From assembly GCA_963719465.1 (NCBI GenBank), contig OY970386.1, forward strand, positions 981,789-1,045,788: a stretch of DNA of 64,000 nt, written 5' to 3'. This document shows positions 14,311 through 55,342 of this stretch, piece after piece. How positions within the stretch are numbered: the first letter of the stretch is position 1; each line of letters starts with the position of its first letter. Under the pieces are notes generated by a model. That model had not been told where the DNA came from, did not search any database, and saw nothing but the letters and a program-made list of their open reading frames with translations. This DNA comes from an uncultured Chloroflexia bacterium (GTDB lineage Bacteria > Chloroflexota > Dehalococcoidia > DSTF01 > JALHUB01). The position numbers were made by a program, and so were the translations under genes.

Positions 14311-14706
14311 TCAACGACCTCCTTGGGGTCTGCCATTCCTCAGTCGCCGAGTGCAAAACAAATGGTTGGGGATTGCGTTGCAGTTCGAGGACAGGGACAA
14401 TTACCGATGCACAGAGTATAGCACACTTTAGCGCCCCCGTCACTTCTAGGCAGATGGCGGCGGGTCCGCGCTGCGAATCAGGCCGACGCAGGCAGATCCG
14501 AGCAGCGACAGCGGCCCGCTGACACCCAACGCCTTTACCTTTGCAGGACTGGCCACGGGTGCTGCATTCCTGCTAGCAATTGCTGGCTGGTACGCCAGGA
14601 GGCGTCGGCTGGGGTAGCTCGCATCCCTGCCGCACACTCGACGACGCCCTTCAATCTGGTCGTTAGATGCCACGCGGGCCCGCTTCGCCTTCACGCCGGC
14701 CGGCAG

Positions 14707-15600
14707 CTACCAGGCAGGGCCAGTGTCGACCACGCTATTGTGTGTCAGCCTCGTCTGATCGCTGCCATCGGCGTTCATTATGTAGATCTCGTCGTTGCCG
14801 TCCCGGTCGCTCGCAAAGGCGATCTTGGCGCCGTCGGGCGACCACGTGGGAAAGACGTTGTTCCCCAGGTCGTTGGTCAAGTTCGTCTGGCCGCTGCCGT
14901 CGGGGTTCATCACGTAGATCTCCTCGTTGCCGTCCCGGTTGCTCATGAAGGCGATCTTCGAGCCATCGGGTGACCAGGCGGGCAGGGCATCAACACCCGC
15001 ACTGTGGGTCAGATTCTTCTGGCCATTGCCGTTCGCCTTCATCACATATATCTCGTCGTTGCCGTCCCGGTCGCTCGTGAAGGCTATCTTGGAGCCGTCC
15101 GGCGACCAGGCCGGGACCTGATCGTTCGCTGCGTTGTTTGTGAGCCGAGTCTGACCGGCGCCGTCAGCGTTCATCACGTAGATCTCGTCGTTGCCGTTTC
15201 GGTCGCTCGTGAAGGCGATCTTCGAGCCGTCAGGCGACCAGGTTGGCAAGATATCGTTCGCGCCGCTGTCGGTGAGCCGCGTCACGTTGCTGCCGTCGGC
15301 GCTCATGACGTAGATACTGAAGGCGCCGTCGCGGTTGCTCTCGAAGGCGATCTGCTTCATGTCCGGCGACCAGGCAGGGGAAGTATCATCCGCGGTGTTG
15401 TCCGTGAGGCGGGTCTTCGGGCCGGCGGCGTCAGCATTCATCACATAGATCTCTAAGTTGCCGTCCCGGTTGCTCACGAAGGCGATCTTGGCGGTGTGCC
15501 ACGACACGCAGCCGGACAGAAGGAAAGGCAGGACAGCACCAATAAGAACAGGAATAACCAACCTATAGCGGGGACGGCTCCTTCCGTTGAACATATCCAT
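14707..15600 (-). CDS. TolB-like PD40 beta-propeller lipoprotein (copy 1 of a tandem pair)
   Basis: 297 aa. LSGC lipobox followed by ~6 PD40 repeats ([27 protein letters not shown]). Near-identical to the next gene. Confidence 0.75.
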
Positions 15601-15643
15601 CTCCTTTGGCTAGCACCGTAGGATCGGCCTGACCGACCGGCAG

Positions 15644-16537
15644 CTACCAGGCAGGGTCAGTGTCGACCACGCTATTGTGCGTCAGCCGCGTCTGATCGCT
15701 GCCGTCGGCGTTCATGATGTAGATCTCATCATTGCCGTCCCGGTCGCTTGTGAAGGCGATCTTGACGCCGTCGGGCGACCAGGAGGGAAACATGTCGTTC
15801 CCCGGGTCATTGGTCAAGTTCGTCTGGCCGCTGCCGTCGGGGTTCATCACGTAGATCTCCGCGTTGCCGTCCCGGTCGCTCATGAAGGCGATCTTGGAGC
15901 CGTCGGGCGACCAGGTGGGCATCAAGTCATCAGCGGCACTGTCGGTCAGGTCAATCTGGTGATTGCCATTCGCGTTCATCACGTAGATCTCCTGGTTGCC
16001 GTTCCGGTCGCTCATGAAGGCGATCTTGGAGCCGTCGGGCGACCAGGTGGGGTGCCGATCGCTCGCTGGGTTGTTGGTGAGCCGAGTCTGGCCGGTGCCG
16101 TCGGCATTCATCACGTAGATCTCGTCATTGCCGTCCCGGTCGCTCGTGAAGGCGATCTTGGAGCCGTCGGGTGACCAGGCGGGCATCTGATCGGTTGCGC
16201 CGTTGTTGGTGAGCCGAGTCTGACCGCTGCCGTCGGCATTCATCACGTAGATTTCGCCGTTGCCGTCCCGGTCGCTCGTGAAGGCGATCTGCTTGCCGTC
16301 CGGCGACCAGGCAGGGTAGATATCAGCCGCGGCGTTGTTGGTGAGACGGGTCTTCGGGCCAGCGGCGTCAGCGTTCATCACATAGATCTCTTGATTGCCG
16401 TCTCGGTTGCTCGTAAACGCGATCGTAGCGGTGCGCCATGACACGCAGCCGGACAGAAGCAAAGGCAGTACGGCGCCAAGAACAAGGGCAATGATTAGCC
16501 GATGGGGGGAACGGCTCCTTCCGTTGAACATATCCAC
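15644..16537 (-). CDS. TolB-like PD40 beta-propeller lipoprotein (copy 2 of a tandem pair)
   Basis: 297 aa. Same architecture as copy 1. The ~937-bp tandem duplication includes the upstream leader. Confidence 0.75.
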   Translation of the reverse strand: MDMFNGRSRSPHRLIIALVLGAVLPLLLSGCVSWRTATIAFTSNRDGNQEIYVMNADAAGPKTRLTNNAAADIYPAWSPDGKQIAFTSDRDGNGEIYVMNADGSGQTRLTNNGATDQMPAWSPDGSKIAFTSDRDGNDEIYVMNADGTGQTRLTNNPASDRHPTWSPDGSKIAFMSDRNGNQEIYVMNANGNHQIDLTDSAADDLMPTWSPDGSKIAFMSDRDGNAEIYVMNPDGSGQTNLTNDPGNDMFPSWSPDGVKIAFTSDRDGNDEIYIMNADGSDQTRLTHNSVVDTDPAW

Positions 16538-29844: not shown

Positions 29845-30969
29845 ATGCGCGCACGCGGCATGAAACAGAAATCGGATGCCACCGACTACATGGCGCGCGC
29901 GCTGGAGCTCGCCCGGCAGGCGCTCGGCACGACGAGCCCGAACCCGGCCGTCGGCGCGGTTCTGGTGAAGGACGGCTGCATCGTCGGCAAGGGCCGCACG
30001 CAGCCGCCGGGAGGCCCGCACGCGGAGGTTGTCGCAATCAAGCAGGCGGGGCCGGATGCTCGCGACGCGACGCTGTATGTGACGCTGGAGCCCTGCGCTC
30101 ACTACGGTCGCACGCCGCCGTGTACGAAAGCGATCATCGAGGCCGGCGTCCGCGAGGTCCACTATTCGTTCGACGACCCTGACCCCAACGGCCGGGGTGC
30201 CGGAGCGCGCGAGCTGCGCGAGGCGGGCATCGAAGTAGTCGCCGGCGAGGGCGAGCAGGAGGCGCGGCGCATCAACGAAGCGTACGTCAAGCAGCGCCTG
30301 ACCGGCCTTCCCTTTGTCATCGCAAAGTGGGCGATGAGCCTGGACGGCAAGATCGCGGCGACGAGCGGCGATTCGCGCTGGGTAAGCGGGCCGGAGACTC
30401 GCGAATGGAGCCACGAGCTGCGGACGAAGATAGACGCGATCATGGTCGGCGTCCGAACGGTGCTCGTTGACGACCCGCAGCTGACGGCGCGACCGGGCGA
30501 CATTGTTGCCGAACGCCAGCCGCTTCGCATCGTCGCCGATAGCCGCGGTCGCACGCCGGTGACGGCCCGCGTCCTCGACGGCCCGGGAAGAGCGCTGGTG
30601 GCCACAACTTCGGCTTCGCGGGCAGCCTGGCGGCGACAGATGGCGGAGGCGGGCACCGAGGTTCTGCTGCTGCCGGACCGCGACGGGCGCGTCGACCTGG
30701 CGGAGCTTCTGCGCGCCCTCGGCGAGCGGCAGGTGCTGAGCCTGCTGGTCGAAGGCGGCGGCGAGCTGCTGGGCGCTTTCTTCGACGGCGGACTGGTCGA
30801 CAAGGTGCAGGCGGTGGTCGCGCCGCTGGTCATCGGCGGCGACGAGGCGCCGGCGGCGGTCGCAGGACGGGGCGTCGAACGCATGGCGGACGCGCTGCGG
30901 CTGCGCAACGTGAGCGTGGAGCGCCTCGGGGAGGATGTGCTCGTCGTCGGCTACCCATCGACGAAGTAG
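29845..30969 (+). CDS. ribD: bifunctional diaminohydroxyphosphoribosylaminopyrimidine deaminase / 5-amino-6-(5-phosphoribosylamino)uracil reductase
   Basis: CMP/dCMP deaminase zinc motif HAEVVAI...PCAHYGRTPPC, plus a C-terminal RibD reductase domain. Confidence 0.9.
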   Translation: MRARGMKQKSDATDYMARALELARQALGTTSPNPAVGAVLVKDGCIVGKGRTQPPGGPHAEVVAIKQAGPDARDATLYVTLEPCAHYGRTPPCTKAIIEAGVREVHYSFDDPDPNGRGAGARELREAGIEVVAGEGEQEARRINEAYVKQRLTGLPFVIAKWAMSLDGKIAATSGDSRWVSGPETREWSHELRTKIDAIMVGVRTVLVDDPQLTARPGDIVAERQPLRIVADSRGRTPVTARVLDGPGRALVATTSASRAAWRRQMAEAGTEVLLLPDRDGRVDLAELLRALGERQVLSLLVEGGGELLGAFFDGGLVDKVQAVVAPLVIGGDEAPAAVAGRGVERMADALRLRNVSVERLGEDVLVVGYPSTK

Positions 30970-30975
30970 GGAAGT

Positions 30976-31065
30976 CCTCGAGGGGACGCTCCCTTCTGGC
31001 GGGGTTCGAGGGGTGTCCCACCCCAAATTCCGGGAAGGCCCTTGTGGGCGGGCGGGTGGGAAGAT
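30976..31065 (+). repeat. dispersed GC-rich hairpin repeat, copy 1 of 3
   Basis: About 75% identical to 53123..53212 and to the reverse complement of 42064..42140. Shared blocks CCTCGNGGGGA, GGGGTGTCCC, GGGCGGGCGGGTGGGAAGAT. Lies immediately 3' of the ribD stop. Confidence 0.7.
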
Positions 31066-31131
31066 AGACGTCGCATGGCGAAGGCGGCAGCGGGGGCGGG
31101 GCAAGCGCAGCGACGTAGAGAGAGGCTAGCT

Positions 31132-31719
31132 ATGTTCACAGGCATCATTGAAGAGGTAGGCGTCGTCAGAAAGGGCGGCGGCGGAACGCTCATCATCGAG
31201 GCGAAGCGCACCCTCTGGGGCACGAACCTGGGCGACAGCATCGCCATCAACGGCATCGACCTGACCGTCGCCCACATGGACGAGGAGTGCTTCACCTTCC
31301 ACGTCATGCCGGAAACCTATCGTCGCAGCAACCTCGGCGCGCTTTCGAAGGGCGACGCCGTGAACCTGGAGCGCTCTCTAACGCTGGCCAGCCGGCTCAG
31401 CGGGCACCTGGTGCGCGGCGTCGTCGAAGGCACCGGGCAACTGCTGTCGCTGACGCCGGAAGCGGACGCTATCCTGGCCCGCTACGCCGCGCCGCCGGAG
31501 CTGATGCGCTACGTCGTCGTCAAAGGCCCGATTGCGGTCGACGGCGTCAGCCTGACGGTGGTGGAGCGCGACGACGCGTCTTTCGTCGTCTCGCTGGTGG
31601 CCTACACGCAGGCGAACACGAACCTCACTCGCCGAAAAGTCGGCGATGCGGTAAACTTGGAGACGGACATTATCGCCCGCTACGTCGAGCAGCTGCTGGC
31701 GGAGCGGGGTCAACCATAG
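31132..31719 (+). CDS. ribE: riboflavin synthase alpha subunit
   Basis: MFTGIIEEVG N-terminus and two lumazine-binding repeats. Confidence 0.9.
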   Translation: MFTGIIEEVGVVRKGGGGTLIIEAKRTLWGTNLGDSIAINGIDLTVAHMDEECFTFHVMPETYRRSNLGALSKGDAVNLERSLTLASRLSGHLVRGVVEGTGQLLSLTPEADAILARYAAPPELMRYVVVKGPIAVDGVSLTVVERDDASFVVSLVAYTQANTNLTRRKVGDAVNLETDIIARYVEQLLAERGQP

Positions 31720-42018: not shown

Positions 42019-42057
42019 GCGCCTGCGGTGCGTCCGGTGCCAAACCTGAAAAAGCTA

Positions 42058-42899
42058 TGTCTGATCTTCCCACCCGCCCACCCGAGATGCGTTGGGATTC
42101 GGGGGACACCCCCGAACCCCCGGAAGAGAGGGATCCCCTCTCTTCACTCTCCCTTTCTCGGCGTGACGGCATTCGCGCCATCGCCTTCGACTGCTACGGC
42201 ACGCTGATCGACTTCACCGACCAGGCGTTCATCCGCGCCTACCACGAGATCTGCGTTCAGCAGGGCATCGCCTGCGACGGCCGGACGCTCTGGGAGAAGT
42301 GGATGGACATCTGGCGGCGCATGTCGTCCGTGGTCAGCGACTATGAAAGTCCGCGCAACGAGCCCACCTCCTGGACCCGCACGATGGCTAGCTTCCGACC
42401 TTATAGTGAAGCCTGGCCGGAGCATTTCGAGGCCTGCTTCCGCGAGCTCGGCGTTCGCGGGGACGGCGTCGCTGCCTACGCGCACGTCCGCAACGGACTG
42501 GCAGACGCGCCGGCGTTCGCGGAAACGGCCGAGGTGCTGTCGGCGCTGAAGTCGCGCTACCACCTGGGCATCCTCTCCAACGCCGACGACGACTTTCTGA
42601 ACGCCTGTCTCGAGAAGAACGGCCTGCACGTCGAGTTCCAGCTCATCGTCACGTCCGAGAGCGCGGGCGTCTACAAGCCGCGGCAGGAGATATTCCACTC
42701 GTTCGTCGAAGCGAGCGGCTTCCAGCGACACGAGGTGCTATACGTTGGCGACAGCCAGTCGGCGGACGTGCTGGGCGCCAAGAACGCGGGCCTGCCCGTA
42801 GCCTGGGTCAACCGCGACGGTTCGCCGCTCAGGGAAGGCGTGCCGCAGCCAGACCACGAAGTCGCCTCGCTGCGCGAGCTTCTCGGAATCTTATCGTAG
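42058..42899 (+). CDS. HAD-superfamily hydrolase (haloacid dehalogenase type II-like)
   Basis: Motif I FDCYGTL, motif III K and motif IV GDSQSAD. The true start is probably downstream of the repeat element, so the N-terminal Pro-rich extension is doubtful. Confidence 0.7.
42064..42140 (-). repeat. dispersed GC-rich hairpin repeat, copy 2 of 3 (inverted)
   Basis: Its reverse complement aligns with copies at 30976 and 53123 (ATCTTCCCACCCGCCC...GGGGGACACCCCCGAACCCC). Lies just 3' of the hemB stop and overlaps the annotated N-terminal extension of the HAD ORF. Confidence 0.65.
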
Positions 42900-44279: not shown

Positions 44280-44308
44280 TTGACAATCCCCCGTTCTGGT
44301 GCTAAATT
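44280..44308 (+). promoter_or_regulatory. sigma-70-type promoter (TTGACA-17-TAAATT)
   Basis: TTGACA at 44280..44285. TAAATT at 44303..44308, 17-nt spacer. Confidence 0.5.
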
Positions 44309-44317
44309 GCCATCAGG

Positions 44318-44498
44318 CCTAGCTCGTCAGTCGCGGTGGGCGGCGACGAGACGGGGGAACCGAAGGCAGCATGGGGTGTACTCGCTTGGAGCGAGAGGGC
44401 AGTCTCTTTCAGCCCTAACCCGACAGCTAACCTCGTAGGCCACTGAAAGAGGGCTGGTTCCAAACAAGGCGGCCGGAGCCAACTCCTCCGGCTTTTTT
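44318..44498 (+). promoter_or_regulatory. candidate cyclic-di-AMP riboswitch (ydaO/kimA class) with intrinsic terminator, upstream of otsA
   Basis: Contains ACGGGGGAACCGAAGG, GGGGUGUACUC and CCCUAACCCGACAGCUAACCUCGUAGGC. I recall these as the conserved ACGGGGA / GGGGUGAAUCC / CCGAACCCGACAGCUAACC blocks of ydaO RNAs. A long-range closing helix (GGAACC...GGUUCC) is present. Terminator GCCGGAG-CCAA-CTCCGGC plus T6 at 44472..44498. Confidence 0.6.
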
Positions 44499-44607
44499 GC
44501 ACCCTCGTGTCCTGCCTGAATGGCGGACAGGCCCGGCCCGGTCGGTTGCGTGTATCTATATCGCTAAGGTGGGAGCGATACCCCGCGACATGCAAAAGGA
44601 GGCCGAC

Positions 44608-46191
44608 ATGGCACCTCGCGATCTCTCCGACTTTCCGCCCTTATCCGTCATCCGGCGCAGTTCAAGTCCACTCATCGTCGTCAGCAACCGCGGCCCCTTC
44701 GAGCACTATCGAGACGCCGGCGGTGTCCTGGCACGGAGGCCCACGAGCGGGGGCGTCGCCGTCGCGCTCTCCAGCATTTTCGGGCGGCAGGAGTTGACGT
44801 GGGTCGTCGGCGCTGTTGGCGATGTTGACCGCGAGCTGGCAATGCGCGACTTCCGCCGCTTTTCTTTTGGCGACGGGCATCGCCTCTGTTTCGCGTCGAC
44901 GGATTCGCACTCATACGATCTCTTCTATCGCACCTTCAGCAATCCGATTCTCTGGTTCCTGCAGCACTCGCTATGGCATCTGCTCGACGGACGGCCGAAC
45001 TTGAGGCAAGAGATCGTGCGGTCCTGGGAGGAAGGCTACGTGCCGGTAAACGCGGCCTTCGCCGCCGCGGTCTGCGACGAGATCGATGACGCGCGCGGGC
45101 CCGCCCGAGTCATGCTCCACGACTACCATCTCTACCTGGCACCACTACTCATCCGCGAGCGTCACCCGGAAGCTCAGCTCCAGCACTTCTGCCACATCCC
45201 CTGGCCGGGGCCGGAGGCCTGGCGCGTGCTGCCGGAATACGTCATCGCCCGCATCTGCGAGGGCATGCTGGCCAACGACAGCGTCGCTTTCCAGACGGAG
45301 GAATCGAAGCGCAACTTCGCGCTGACCTGCCTCGCATATCTTCCTGACACGACAGTCGATCTGGCAGAGACTGCGATCAGCCACCGGGAACGGTCGACTG
45401 GTATCTTTGCCAATCCGATATCGGTGGACGTGTTCGACCTGAGGCGGAAGCTCATCTCGCCGAAAGTGCAGGCCTACCGGCAGGCGCTGGTTGGCGAAGA
45501 TGACATAAGGACAATCGTTTGCGTCGACCGTCTGGACCCGGCAAAGAATGTCGCCGGCGCGCTGAAGGCGTTTGACCTCCTCCTTCAGCGCCATCCCGAA
45601 TGGTCGGGCAAGGTCCGGATGCTCGCCTTCCTGGTGCCGTCGCGGGTAGCGATCCCCGAGTACCAGACGTATCGGGACAAGGTCTTTACGCTCGTTGACG
45701 AGATAAACTCGCGACACGGCGACGGGCGTTGGCAGCCGCTAACGGTCTTCTACGAACAGAACCGAACCCAGGCGCTTGCCGGCTTGAGCCTATACGACGT
45801 GCTCATCGCCAACTCCATAGCCGACGGCATGAACCTTGTGGCCAAGGAAGGGCCCGTCTTGAACGGGCGCGACGGCGTCCTGGTGCTTTCGACGGCGGTG
45901 GGTGCGGCGCGCGAACTCGGCGGCGCAGCGCTGACCGTCGAGGCCGGGGACATCGAAGGGACCACCGAAGCGCTCAAACAGGCGCTGTCGATGGACGCTT
46001 CGGAGCGCCGGCAGCGGGCGCGGCTGCTGCGACAGACCATCGCGCGCCACGACATCAACGATTGGTTGGAGACGCAGATGGCGGCGTTCGGCGAACGTTC
46101 GGCGGAGATCCTTCCGGTGCCCGCATCGCTGCTCACCCGCCCGCCCTCCCGCGAGGAGCCACCCGCGCTCATCGCCGGCGGAATCTCTTGA
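44608..46191 (+). CDS. otsA: alpha,alpha-trehalose-phosphate synthase (UDP-forming), GT20
   Basis: ATG after AAGGAGG. GT20 N-terminal block VVSNRGPF and the overall length. Confidence 0.85.
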   Translation: MAPRDLSDFPPLSVIRRSSSPLIVVSNRGPFEHYRDAGGVLARRPTSGGVAVALSSIFGRQELTWVVGAVGDVDRELAMRDFRRFSFGDGHRLCFASTDSHSYDLFYRTFSNPILWFLQHSLWHLLDGRPNLRQEIVRSWEEGYVPVNAAFAAAVCDEIDDARGPARVMLHDYHLYLAPLLIRERHPEAQLQHFCHIPWPGPEAWRVLPEYVIARICEGMLANDSVAFQTEESKRNFALTCLAYLPDTTVDLAETAISHRERSTGIFANPISVDVFDLRRKLISPKVQAYRQALVGEDDIRTIVCVDRLDPAKNVAGALKAFDLLLQRHPEWSGKVRMLAFLVPSRVAIPEYQTYRDKVFTLVDEINSRHGDGRWQPLTVFYEQNRTQALAGLSLYDVLIANSIADGMNLVAKEGPVLNGRDGVLVLSTAVGAARELGGAALTVEAGDIEGTTEALKQALSMDASERRQRARLLRQTIARHDINDWLETQMAAFGERSAEILPVPASLLTRPPSREEPPALIAGGIS

Positions 46192-51670: not shown

Positions 51671-52483
51671 GTGTTGGTGGAAAGACGGGCCCGCATTTTG
51701 GGTCATATCGTAAGTGAATACGTACACACAGCGCTGCCGGTAGGTTCTGAGACCATCGTCCGCAAGTACGGCCTGCCCATCTCTCCGGCAACGGTGCGTA
51801 ACGAAATGGCGCGCTTGGAGGAGGAAGGCTACATAACGCATCCGCACACCTCCGCCGGCCGCATCCCTTCCGACATGGGGTATCGCTTCTACGTCGAAAG
51901 TCTGATGGAGGAAGAGGACCTGCCCTGGTATGAGAAGCAGTCGATCCAGAGGCGGTTGCGGATGGCGGCCAGGGCGGCTTCCGGTCGCGCTGCGCTGCTG
52001 GCGGAGCGGGCGCGAATCGCGGCCACGGTGCTGGCGGAGAGCGTGCGCAACGCCGCGGTCGCGACGGCGCCCCGTTCGCCCGGGATCGACGAAGAGGACG
52101 ACGCGCTGTACGACCGGGCTTACCTGGAAGGGCTGCGAAACGTCCTCAGCCAGCCGGAGTTCTCGCAGACGGAGGACGTCATCGACCTCGTCTGCGTGCT
52201 CGAAGAGGGCAACCTGATGCGGGCGATGCCGCTCGACAACCTCTCCGGCGAGGACGTGACCGTCGTCATCGGCGAGGAGAACCGCGAGGACGTTATGCGG
52301 CGCTGCAGCGTCGTACTGACGCGCTATGGAGTGCCGGGCACGGCCGTCGGCGTGCTGGCGGTCCTGGGGCCGACGCGGATGGCTTATTCGCGCGTCATTC
52401 CTACGGTACGTTACCTCTCACTCCTGATGGGCGATTCTCGTCGCCCAGGGCTGAGCGCCGGCCAAACAGGCGCGGGGGCAAGG
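51671..52483 (+). CDS. hrcA: heat-inducible transcription repressor HrcA (no in-frame stop; reads through into grpE)
   Basis: GTG start. N-terminal wHTH (ILGHIVSEYVHTALPVGSETIV...ATVRNEMARLEEEGYITHPHTSAGRIPSDMGYR) and a C-terminal ...GPTRMAYSRVIPTVRYL block. Continuous ORF with the next gene. Confidence 0.8.
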
Positions 52484-53107
52484 ATGTCCGAGCAAGAGAA
52501 AAACAACCAGCATCCGTCTCACGTCGACAAGCGCAGCTCCACCGGCGGCAAGCACCACGACGCCACGGAGAACCTGAGGCATCAGGTTGACGAGGCGAGG
52601 AAGAAGGCACATGAGGCGATAGGTCCGGAGGCACAGCTCGAAGAGGAGCGGAAGAAGGCGGAAGGCTACCTGGCGAGCTGGCAACGGACAGCGGCCGACT
52701 TCCAGAACTATAAACGTCGCACGGAGCAGGAGCGTCAGGAGCTGGCGCTGTTCGCCAACGCGTCGCTCATCATCAACCTGCTGCCTATCGTCGACGACCT
52801 GGAGCGCGCTCTCCAGAGCGTCGACGCGCATCTCGCCGGCCTGACGTGGGTTGACGGCATCGGCCTGATCTATCGCAAGTTCCGCGCCGTGCTGGAGGCA
52901 AGCGGCGTCAAGGAGATCCAGACGGAAGGCCAGGACTTCGACCCGCGCTACCACGAGGCGACAATGTTCGGCGAAGGCGAGGACGGGAAGGTGGTCGCCG
53001 AGGTGCAGAAGGGGTACATGCTCGGCGACCGCGTGCTGCGTCCGGCGATGGTCGTCGTCGGCCGCGGCAAGCCATCGGAGCAGCCGCCCGAAGGCCAGGC
53101 GGGCTGA
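52484..53107 (+). CDS. grpE: nucleotide exchange factor GrpE (own RBS and ATG, but in frame with hrcA)
   Basis: GGGGGCAAGG before the ATG. GrpE motifs ADFQNYKRR and the C-terminal beta-sheet domain (GYMLGDRVLRPAMVVV). Confidence 0.85.
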   Translation: MSEQEKNNQHPSHVDKRSSTGGKHHDATENLRHQVDEARKKAHEAIGPEAQLEEERKKAEGYLASWQRTAADFQNYKRRTEQERQELALFANASLIINLLPIVDDLERALQSVDAHLAGLTWVDGIGLIYRKFRAVLEASGVKEIQTEGQDFDPRYHEATMFGEGEDGKVVAEVQKGYMLGDRVLRPAMVVVGRGKPSEQPPEGQAG

Positions 53108-53122
53108 GGCACGCGATAGACG

Positions 53123-53212
53123 CCTCGGGGGGAGTCCAGAGAGTCCGCCCTCGGGCGGGGGGCCTGGGGTGTCCCCCAGAAGATCCTTCCTGGGCGGGCC
53201 GGGTGGGAAGAT
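53123..53212 (+). repeat. dispersed GC-rich hairpin repeat, copy 3 of 3
   Basis: Aligns with 30976..31065. Lies immediately 3' of the grpE stop. Contains the CTGGGG-TGTC-CCCCAG hairpin. Confidence 0.7.
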
Positions 53213-53287
53213 CAAGCGATTCATGGGGCGACAGCGCCCAGCGCTTCTTGGCATGAGAGCGCTATCATTAGATTAGATGCATCATCT

Positions 53288-53346
53288 CCAGACCGGAGGG
53301 AGCCACCATGGCGAAGGTAATCGGAATCGACCTGGGAACAATATGA
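53288..53346 (+). repeat. duplicated copy of the dnaK RBS/start (encodes [12 protein letters not shown]-stop) followed by a 20-nt perfect hairpin
   Basis: 53288..53340 is ~85% identical to 53429..53481. Hairpin CTGAGGGT-TGAA-ACCCTCAG at 53353..53372. Confidence 0.7.
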
Positions 53347-53448
53347 GCAGTTCTGAGGGTTGAAACCCTCAGCCTTTCCTGAAGCTGCGGCACTGAAGTG
53401 AGACGGAGCCGCTGACCCAAGACACATCTCCAACCGGAGGACATCATC

Positions 53449-55342
<1,894 letters not shown>

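Follow-up and report, generated by a model that had tools for sequence, protein, structure and literature searches.

Among the small interspersed repeats of bacteria, the repetitive extragenic palindromic elements and their mosaics (REP/BIME) of Enterobacteria and Pseudomonas are mobilised by RAYT transposases and can stabilise the mRNA upstream of them; REP elements are handled from single-stranded DNA (by RAYT), as are the ends of IS200/IS605 (by TnpA). Another kind, represented by BOX in Streptococcus pneumoniae, Correia/NEMIS in Neisseria, ERIC and the MIRU of mycobacteria, is transcribed with the operons that contain it and can affect mRNA processing or expression. To our knowledge none of these four carries a conserved G-quadruplex motif, and the function of bacterial G-quadruplexes is still debated, mostly on the basis of motif counts. 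Here we analyse a repeat present in three copies in a stretch of 64,000 nt (hereafter the window; contig OY970386.1 of assembly GCA_963719465.1, positions 981,789 to 1,045,788) from an uncultured bacterium of the Dehalococcoidia (Chloroflexota). It represents a small interspersed repeat family that is real, previously unannotated and apparently undescribed. The kind of element closest to it is REP/BIME, the Rickettsia palindromic elements (RPE) and the BOX/Correia type, and it is set apart from them by an integral, maintained G-quadruplex motif.

Anatomy and comparison with described repeats

Along its G-rich strand the element consists of a purine block (GGGRGAGTG), a first hairpin (P1, typically CAGAGRGGG-loop-CCCYCTCTG), the linker CCGGGGG, a second hairpin (P2, a TGT loop closed by 7-8 pairs), a spacer of 10-25 nt that is pyrimidine-rich at its end, a G-block (GGGnGGGnGGGnGGG) and finally AAGAT or AAGAA. 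Around half of the copies continue with RCGCnnATGTTnCG and then GAAGCGGCAGCGG or GGCGACnACGCCG, and a 3' tail like that of copy 1 belongs to the repeat unit in many copies. The core measures ~100 nt and the full unit ~140-160 nt. Modules can be lost: P2 is absent in loci L036 and L076, and a canonical P1 in L026 352-431.

Like REP/BIME, the element is short, GC-rich, hairpin-forming and mostly extragenic, often lies just past stop codons, occurs in either orientation and sometimes in clusters, keeps its structure while its sequence drifts, and shows no terminal inverted repeats or target duplications. It departs from them in a modular build of three to four times their length, with two different hairpins, a G-quadruplex motif and a tail where REP has a single imperfect palindrome of 20-40 nt and a GTAG head (no GTAG was found here); inverted pairs are rare (one, in L030) and the copy number looks like tens, not hundreds, with 3 copies per 64 kb in the window and up to 3 per contig of 13 kb. 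With RPE it shares a length of ~100-150 bp and the in-frame insertion into a translated coding sequence, which is seen here in copy 3 only and with translation inferred, whereas most copies are intergenic, the lineage is unrelated and RPE are without the G-quadruplex module. BOX, Correia/NEMIS, ERIC and MIRU are likewise multi-module small repeats of operon spacers, and the loss or duplication of modules known from the BOX/Correia type recurs here in P1-less, P2-less and nested-insertion copies; Correia and ERIC, in contrast, have terminal inverted repeats, and Correia duplicates TA.

Likeness to other systems is more partial. The TRIT motifs and intrinsic terminators of GC-rich bacteria are also conserved structured motifs recurring just downstream of genes, but the element has no U-tract and has copies in antisense and in divergent regions, and an intrinsic terminator or TRIT-like motif was rejected on these grounds. 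The G-quadruplex of pilE in Neisseria gonorrhoeae (G3TG3TTG3TG3) is nearly the same type of motif, with four G3 tracts and loops of 1-2 nt; it is a single site tied to one recombination system, whereas here we deal with a dispersed repeat with partner hairpins. The IS200/IS605-derived palindrome-associated transposable elements (PATE) resemble it in their strand-specific hairpins and in the lack of terminal inverted repeats and target duplication, and differ in that here the hairpins do not lie at both ends, no conserved target tetra- or pentanucleotide stands at the 5' junction and no TnpA was seen. Integron attC cores (RYYYAAC ... GTTRRRY) were absent from the aligned copies, by inspection only. 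The defining features of REP, of miniature inverted-repeat transposable elements (MITE), of PATE, of attC and of intrinsic terminators are not those of this element.

A repeat family of uncultured Dehalococcoidia

The three window copies align co-linearly with a mean column identity of 71%. Their short shared blocks alone are not significant, three matches being reached in 11 and 15 of 100 shuffles of the window (64.5% GC), and the significance, which excludes chance, lies in the co-linear whole. A covariance model (R1) with copy 2 left out of its seed recovers this copy at E=1.4e-9, and copies 1 and 2, both withheld from a hairpin-only model (R2), are recovered by it at E=4.8e-5 and 1.3e-6; no fourth copy was found in the 64 kb by either covariance model or by nhmmer with a profile of the three copies. 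All three copies of the original prediction were found where it had placed them, with model-defined extents slightly larger than first read. The co-linear similarity of its shared blocks also holds, except for the block CCTCGNGGGGA, which is common to copies 1 and 2 only and out of family register, corresponding in copy 1 to the 5' arm of P1 and in copy 2 to flank together with the 5' block.

Pattern scans and the two covariance models, applied to contigs of metagenome-assembled genomes (MAGs) and metagenomes, yielded ~45 distinct copies in roughly 530 kb of Dehalococcoidia/Chloroflexota sequence. An exact-pattern scan of genomes, one per species (GGGGTGTCCC, a gap of 15-45 and CGGGTGGGAAGAT), returned 12 stretches, of which 11 are true and all of these lie in MAGs labelled Dehalococcoidia, Dehalococcoidales or Chloroflexi; the twelfth, in Novacetimonas, was rejected as a chance match with the rest of the element absent. 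The metagenome scan used the G-block alone and gave 58 loci, ~30 of which have the two-hairpin architecture upstream that the pattern did not require. The model searches added copies missed by exact patterns, with three in 13 kb of L026 and two each in L029, L030, L053, L057, L065, L007 and L075. No convincing copy was present in the viral contigs scanned, and a viral origin was discarded, the sole viral contig with a G-block having no hairpins. The nearest relatives of the RibE protein of the window are annotated as Dehalococcoidia MAGs, and within the sampled sequences the family occurs in uncultured Dehalococcoidia only. Rfam 15 gave no gathering-score match in the window, and permissive scans of four copies returned only chance-level matches, among them Clostridiales-2 (E=0.038) and some miRNA-like ones, all weak and judged to be chance. 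No description of the family was found in the searchable literature on Chloroflexi/Dehalococcoidia repeats or G-quadruplexes, nor by sequence string.

Two hairpins kept by compensatory substitution

Covariation was assessed on a model-based alignment of 43 hits (41 distinct), which is fitted to the structure and thereby favours pairing. Among the 41 distinct sequences 94.0% of the cells are paired, against 76.8% in column shuffles, both sides have changed in 16 of the 18 pairs, and none of 500 shuffles reaches the observed pairing or change values; sliding the partner columns lowers pairing to 44-62%. The compensatory changes are visible already in the raw pattern-scan sequences. Both P1 and P2 are kept by compensatory substitution. 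The compensatory changes first noticed in the central hairpin, P2, of the window copies are therefore real and general across the family, and the conserved RNA or DNA structure proposed from them is confirmed by the covariation of P1 and P2 together; the earlier reading had missed that a second hairpin, P1, covaries and that the GGGCGGGCGGGTGGG block is a G-quadruplex motif. On the G-rich strand, cells with G-T wobbles outnumber those with A-C by 25 to 13 (33 representatives, p=0.07), a weak hint that this is the strand that folds, as RNA or as single-stranded DNA. RNAalifold gave no consensus structure for the 3' tail. A G-block paired to the pyrimidine tract before it or to P2 was also considered and rejected, as it occurs in single copies only (W1, TCCCACCC/GGGTGGGA; W2, GATCCTTCC/GGGAAGATC) and is inconsistent across the family.

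An integral G-quadruplex motif

In each of the three window copies the G-block is a canonical G-quadruplex motif with loops of 1-2 nt. Only four such short-loop motifs exist on both strands of the window, where a first-order Markov simulation expects 0.12, and the elements account for three of them. The remaining one (46136-46150, minus strand, GGGAGGGCGGGCGGG) lies antisense inside the coding region 44497-46191 without hairpins or AAGAT, and was rejected as an element copy since the other modules are absent. The circularity of searching with the G-block was controlled with 14 copies recovered by the hairpin-only model R2, none of them found via G-block patterns: a canonical motif follows 10-27 nt downstream in 12 of them, eleven times with short loops, against a background of 0.011 per 80 nt, and of the remaining two one has three tracts plus AGG and the other a block split by an inserted hairpin.

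The tracts stay intact while the loops take the combinations C/C/T, T/C/T, C/T/T, A/C/T, T/T/A, T/A/T and C/CC/T, and at L009 2172 a different G-tract sequence still permits a quadruplex. Constant tracts with drifting loops are the pattern that would be expected from selection on quadruplex potential, and they seem to fit it better than a duplex partner or a fixed protein site. The short-loop regular expression singles out the elements; G4Hunter in 25-nt windows does not, because the C residues of the loops and the flanks dilute its score.

Filled and empty insertion sites

Comparison with related genomes revealed insertion polymorphism at at least four sites. The ribD|ribE junction is filled in the window and in L072, L073 and L074 (RibE 85-94% identical), and empty in L075 (RibE 81%; junction TAA-tc-ATG) and L077 (75%; TGATG overlap); L081 was left out of this comparison for its different synteny. 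In L075 two other sites are filled, dcd|ribD and one 5' of a radical-SAM gene, and both are empty in the window. At hemB|HAD the element is present in the window and in more than 12 contigs, and absent from L078/L079 (HAD 89% identical) and L080 (78%). Copies of the same genome are the most alike, including the spacer and ~45 nt of tail (the L075 pair, the L026 trio, L004/L010 and the L022 pair), and tandem, clustered and head-to-head arrangements occur in L053, L029 and L030. The family as a whole is found in both orientations. Because relatives differ in filled and empty sites and same-genome copies are the most alike, the element is, or has been, mobile. No target-site duplication was seen at the filled/empty junctions or between same-genome copies, at diverged junctions that could hide short ones, and no conserved sequence precedes the element in the aligned copies. 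Terminal inverted repeats are absent from the copies compared, apart from 18-nt flanks in the L004/L010 subfamily and partial ones in L057. Among the candidates first put forward, a REP/MITE-like dispersed element is consequently the best, given the further copies in related genomes, the insertion polymorphism and the same-genome likeness; a classical MITE, with terminal inverted repeats and target duplications, does not describe most copies, and a recombination site is neither favoured nor contradicted by these data.

At ribD|ribE the orthologues keep the purine block, the potential for P1 and P2 and the G-block, with P2 differing by compensated changes or a register shift and loop 2 of the G-block changed from C to A between intact tracts. 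This persistence suggests selection on resident copies, at host level or for a local function, or homogenisation by gene conversion.

The 5' end of the HAD-family hydrolase gene at hemB|HAD overlaps copy 3. Two in-frame ATGs (42057, 42087) precede the DxD motif with no further canonical start between, and the reading from 42057 begins ATG TCT GAT CTT CCC ACC; the identical protein of the same genome, P0121 (100%, 270 aa), starts at the ATG at 42087, which also lies within the element. The extension occurs exclusively where the element does: it is present in P0121, P0123 and P0132 and absent in P0122, P0124, P0130 and P0134, and homologues from element-free genomes begin MNKSSSDGIRA, MQNPSQRDGIRA or MNERASTDGIRA. 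It has undergone in-frame deletions of 16 residues (48 nt) in P0129 and P0133 and of 6 nt in L028. Copy 3 is apparently translated as an N-terminal extension of the hydrolase. At this site the element would be neither a terminator nor an untranslated structure, and the extension would be tolerated and, in some lineages, trimmed in frame. A minus-strand open reading frame (ORF) at 42144-42731 was rejected as a gene upstream of copy 3, as it has no Pfam hit and the real gene is the plus-strand hydrolase.

Gene context

Gene calls for most loci are rough ones from third-position GC, checked on known genes of the window; real annotations were used for L072-L081. On these crude calls the non-orthologous copies between co-directional genes are ~15 in sense and 5 in antisense, with 6 more between convergent and 6 between divergent genes; copy 3 and L075 8712-8816, between dcd and ribD, are the firm antisense cases. 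Many sense copies begin within 20 nt of the upstream stop codon, which is to be expected where an element lands in a very short spacer (ribD and ribE are 2 nt apart or overlap at the empty sites). The original prediction had all three copies abutting gene 3' ends. This stands for copies 1 and 2. Copy 3 is indeed found 39 nt past the hemB stop, but on the strand opposite to hemB, and it reaches into the 5' coding end of the hydrolase. As a general description, "terminator-associated" fails, with no U-tract, about a quarter of the co-directional copies in antisense and six copies between divergent genes.

No T-runs follow the hairpins, and simple scans show neither a terminator nor a promoter for copy 1 or copy 2. 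Sites resembling terminators (hairpin plus T-run) number 12 in 40 kb of the window against 11.4-11.6 in shuffles, and sigma-70-like promoters are enriched over shuffles; the lineage may rely little on canonical terminators, leaving room for a non-canonical terminator role. Downstream of the G-block, at a distance of 20-110 nt, many loci show a sigma-70-like -35/-10 pair, and these promoter-like boxes fall outside the segment common to same-genome copies.

Copies adjoin heat-shock genes in three genomes: before dnaK in the window (53124-53218), before dnaJ in L001 (6942-7037), and before and after dnaJ in L026 (352-431 and 1729-1834). This could be chance among ~45 copies or hint at a link with the dnaK operon.

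Origin and possible functions

We favour, with a probability of about 0.6, a non-coding, non-autonomous, REP-like interspersed repeat that is recognised as a folded G-rich single strand. Such a repeat would spread at the DNA level through a trans-acting enzyme recognising this strand with its two hairpins and G-quadruplex, and the anatomy suggests REP/RAYT-like or IS200/IS605-like mobilisation from single-stranded DNA, a mechanism that would account for the absence of both terminal inverted repeats and target duplications. Sense insertions, the majority, would be transcribed as 3'-untranslated or intercistronic segments, where 3' exonucleases or RNA polymerase would be expected to be hindered by the two GC hairpins and an RNA G-quadruplex, presumably as a side effect that is perhaps co-opted at some sites. 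Several observations weigh against this account. No RAYT, other transposase or mobilising gene was seen beside any copy, the survey covering annotated neighbours in loci of up to 20 kb with no genome-wide search made. The density is modest (3 per 64 kb in the window, and only 2 further copies in ~150 kb of loci chosen through other genes), and with a mutual likeness of only ~70% the window copies show no sign that the element was recently active in this genome. The hairpins are confined to the 5' half and the tail is without consensus structure, unlike the ends of IS200/IS605, and the 5' flank carries no conserved target sequence. Orientation is biased towards sense (~15 against 5 between co-directional genes, on crude calls). 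Finally, the ribD|ribE core is retained over a RibE divergence range of 85-94%, at which the surrounding intergenic DNA is unalignable; retained orthologous cores point to constraint on single copies, unlike what a purely selfish element would show, and this constraint is the main reason for keeping some weight on a host RNA or a DNA-level site.

A cis-acting RNA of the host, serving as a U-tract-independent terminator, pause site or 3'-end protector and dispersed only secondarily, would suit a lineage with as few canonical terminators as the window suggests, and would agree with the many sense copies starting within ~20 nt of a stop, the sense excess, the wobble excess and the ribD|ribE cores, whose hairpin is kept through a register shift or compensation. 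Such an RNA, though, should have little use for the at least 5-6 antisense copies between co-directional genes (two of them on firm gene calls), for the six copies between divergent genes, where no transcript end is needed, or for copy 3, within an ORF apparently translated from the opposite strand; the lack of a U-tract and the filled and empty sites among close relatives, which carry no sign of compensation, speak against it as well, and we regard it as doubtful. Rather less probable still is a structural site in DNA, in which the G-quadruplex and cruciform-prone hairpins would serve protein binding, recombination or promoter-proximal regulation. It has analogues in the pilE and promoter G-quadruplexes, and invariant tracts with variable loops, tolerance of either orientation, the promoter-like pairs downstream of the G-block and the low-GC relatives with hairpin-plus-G-block arrays in long intergenic regions are consistent with it; yet the promoter-like boxes lie outside the segment shared within genomes and copies 1 and 2 have none, neither a recombinase nor a variable locus was seen in association with the element, and a duplex protein site has no need of covarying hairpins. 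A small peptide, with purine-rich GGGAAGAT as the ribosome-binding site for the conserved ATG 8-10 nt downstream (ATG-TTN-CGN...), or a tiny gene, could be read from the motif CGCnnATGTTnCG that follows, with its wobble-like third-base variation at TTN and its ATG TTT CGG stop at two loci. It is very improbable, since ORFs opening at the tail ATG are unrelated in sequence and anything from 2 to more than 400 codons long, the ATG tail is missing from copy 3 and other copies, and spacers between P2 and the G-block vary by non-multiples of 3; a leader peptide at the tail ATG was rejected on the inconsistent ORF lengths, and a small ORF in the core on the spacer lengths. That the whole resemblance is a chance likeness of GC-rich intergenic sequence would agree with the insignificance of the short blocks alone, and is refuted by independent model matches at E=1e-9 to 1e-23, ~45 co-linear copies elsewhere, the strong covariation and the recovery by the hairpin-only model, which leave it a negligible chance.

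Beyond the REP-like repeat that we favour, one may speculate, with some reserve, that the succession of hairpin, hairpin and G-quadruplex is a functional strand-specific quadruplex device co-opted by Dehalococcoidia, either as a terminator or protector or as a K+- or temperature-responsive switch, the latter idea because in the window, L001 and L026 copies repeatedly stand beside dnaK or dnaJ. This, if true, would be the first bacterial G-quadruplex family with a function backed by conservation and covarying partner helices throughout a class. The dozens of natural variants offer a test set for quadruplex folding and for effects on transcription, mRNA stability and DNA transactions, and a mobilising enzyme, if found, would widen the range of structures recognised by single-strand transposases. 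The family is also a lineage marker, a source of annotation artefacts in the form of N-terminal extensions and over-extended ORFs (a 214-aa "RibE", the HAD extension), and a likely cause of assembly breaks in the MAGs that carry it.

The copies in the window

The genes flanking the window copies were named by Pfam, and the coordinates of the copies and their parts are collected in Table 1. Copy 3 is the perfect example of the anatomy (z-score of its RNA fold, -2.97), whereas the P1 helices of copies 1 and 2 have decayed. Copy 1 starts at the ribD stop (TAG 30967-30969) and ends 62 nt 5' of the ribE ATG (31133); its orthologue in L072 has a perfect P1, CCAGAGGGG-TCCT-CCCCTCTGG. Copy 2 starts 16 nt past the stop of an hrcA/grpE ORF (53107), with dnaK downstream. 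Copy 3 falls downstream of the hemB stop (42018) and ahead of the HAD hydrolase domain, on the strand opposite to both genes. The tail of copy 1 contains an ATG (31076) that shares the frame of ribE and produces a spurious 214-aa reading (31076-31719); the RibE of a relative (P0096, 217 aa) is annotated with a similar extension, and element insertions seem to mislead start-codon calling.

Table 1. Parts of the three repeat copies in the window and the reading frame that overlaps copy 3
Feature	Position	Strand	Sequence or state	Basis or remark
Copy 1 core	30964..31071	+		R1 covariance model, 66.3 bits, E=7.6e-13
Copy 1 5' purine block	30970..30975	+	GGAAGT, degenerate against family GGGRGAGTG	model alignment
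Copy 1 P1 hairpin	30976..30999	+	CCTCGAGGGG-ACGC-TCCCTTCTGG	degenerate, two internal mismatches
Copy 1 P2 hairpin	31008..31024	+	GGGGTG-TCC-CACCCC	register shifted
Copy 1 G-block	31046..31065	+	GGGCGGGCGGGTGGG plus AAGAT	canonical G-quadruplex motif, 1-nt loops
Copy 1 3' tail	31066..31116	+	AGACGTCGCATGGCGAAGGCGGCAGCGG...GCGACGT	kept in orthologue L072
Copy 2 core	53124..53218	+		R1, 52.2 bits, E=1.4e-9; not in model seed
Copy 2 P1 hairpin	53136..53155	+	weak, several mismatches	model alignment
Copy 2 P2 hairpin	53164..53179	+	CTGGGG-TGTC-CCCCAG	
Copy 2 G-block	53192..53212	+	GGGCGGGCCGGGTGGG plus AAGAT	
Copy 3 core	42058..42157	-		R1, 112 bits, E=1.9e-23; best preserved of the three
Copy 3 P1 hairpin	42123..42145	-	GAAGAGAGGG-GAT-CCCTCTCTTC	10 perfect pairs
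Copy 3 P2 hairpin	42098..42116	-	TTCGGGGG-TGT-CCCCCGAA	8 perfect pairs
Copy 3 G-block	42064..42083	-	GGGTGGGCGGGTGGG plus AAGAT	
HAD-family hydrolase ORF	42057..42899	+		first ~36 codons are the reverse complement of copy 3

Variant copies and low-GC relatives

Extra nested hairpins occur in L022 (348-497 and 1640-1774) and L005 (7625-7760), in the linker between P1 and P2, in the P2 loop or in the G-block, an example of such a module being GCCTGCCCTGAGCGSAGCCGAAGGGC; they are either other small elements inserting into the repeat or module expansions. In one MAG (L004 3560-3720 and L010 1050-1210) the element lies within 18-nt inverted flanks, CTAGCAAGGTGCTGAAAA ... TTTTCAGCACCCTGCTAG, of which half-sites are found at L057 350-375 and 5040-5060; these may mark a subfamily with true terminal inverted repeats or may form an outer closing stem.

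Low-GC contigs (L021 2660-3200, 5420-5560 and 9790-10030; also L049, L064, L041, L061 and L048) contain clustered arrays of a shorter unit, composed of a hairpin such as GAGGTACAGCCT, AGGGCGGGnGGGTGGGAAGAWAAAC, an A-rich stretch and a GGGGG/CCCCC hairpin, with C-rich near-complements (CCCCCCACCC) close by. They probably represent a sister family built around the same G-block.

Other features of the window

The surroundings of copy 2 are unusual in other respects. The ribosome-binding site and first 11 codons of dnaK are duplicated 141 nt upstream (53292-53480; 88% over 48 nt), where they read as a 12-codon mini-ORF (53309-53347), followed by the perfect hairpin CTGAGGGTTGAAACCCTCAG (53353-53372) and the dnaK start at 53450; the duplicate could be a leader peptide mimicking the DnaK N-terminus or an insertion scar with a long target duplication. 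The hairpin, CTGAGGGTTGAAACC(C/G)TCAG, recurs near an element copy at L044 1064-1083, an unrelated metagenome contig, and may be a second small repeat family. The dnaK gene itself (53449-55342) is split: the ORF at 53449-54906 matches only the first 156 positions of the Hsp70 profile and the ORF at 53936-55342 lies in another frame, which reflects either a frameshift or pseudogene or an assembly error. Upstream, the ORF at 51671-53107 (478 aa) joins a C-terminal HrcA domain (residues 147-243) to a GrpE domain (312-464), being either a true hrcA-grpE fusion or the product of a lost stop or frameshift in the assembly.

Elsewhere, twelve tandem units of 132 bp, 63-85% identical to the reference copy, occupy 14696-16442 within two adjacent minus-strand ORFs of 297 aa, in what looks like a duplicated repeat-protein gene, possibly a beta-propeller. 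A cyclic di-AMP riboswitch (RF00379, 77.6 bits) at 44306-44456, syntenic in L011, is followed by a canonical terminator (44471-44493) upstream of the ORF at 44497-46191.

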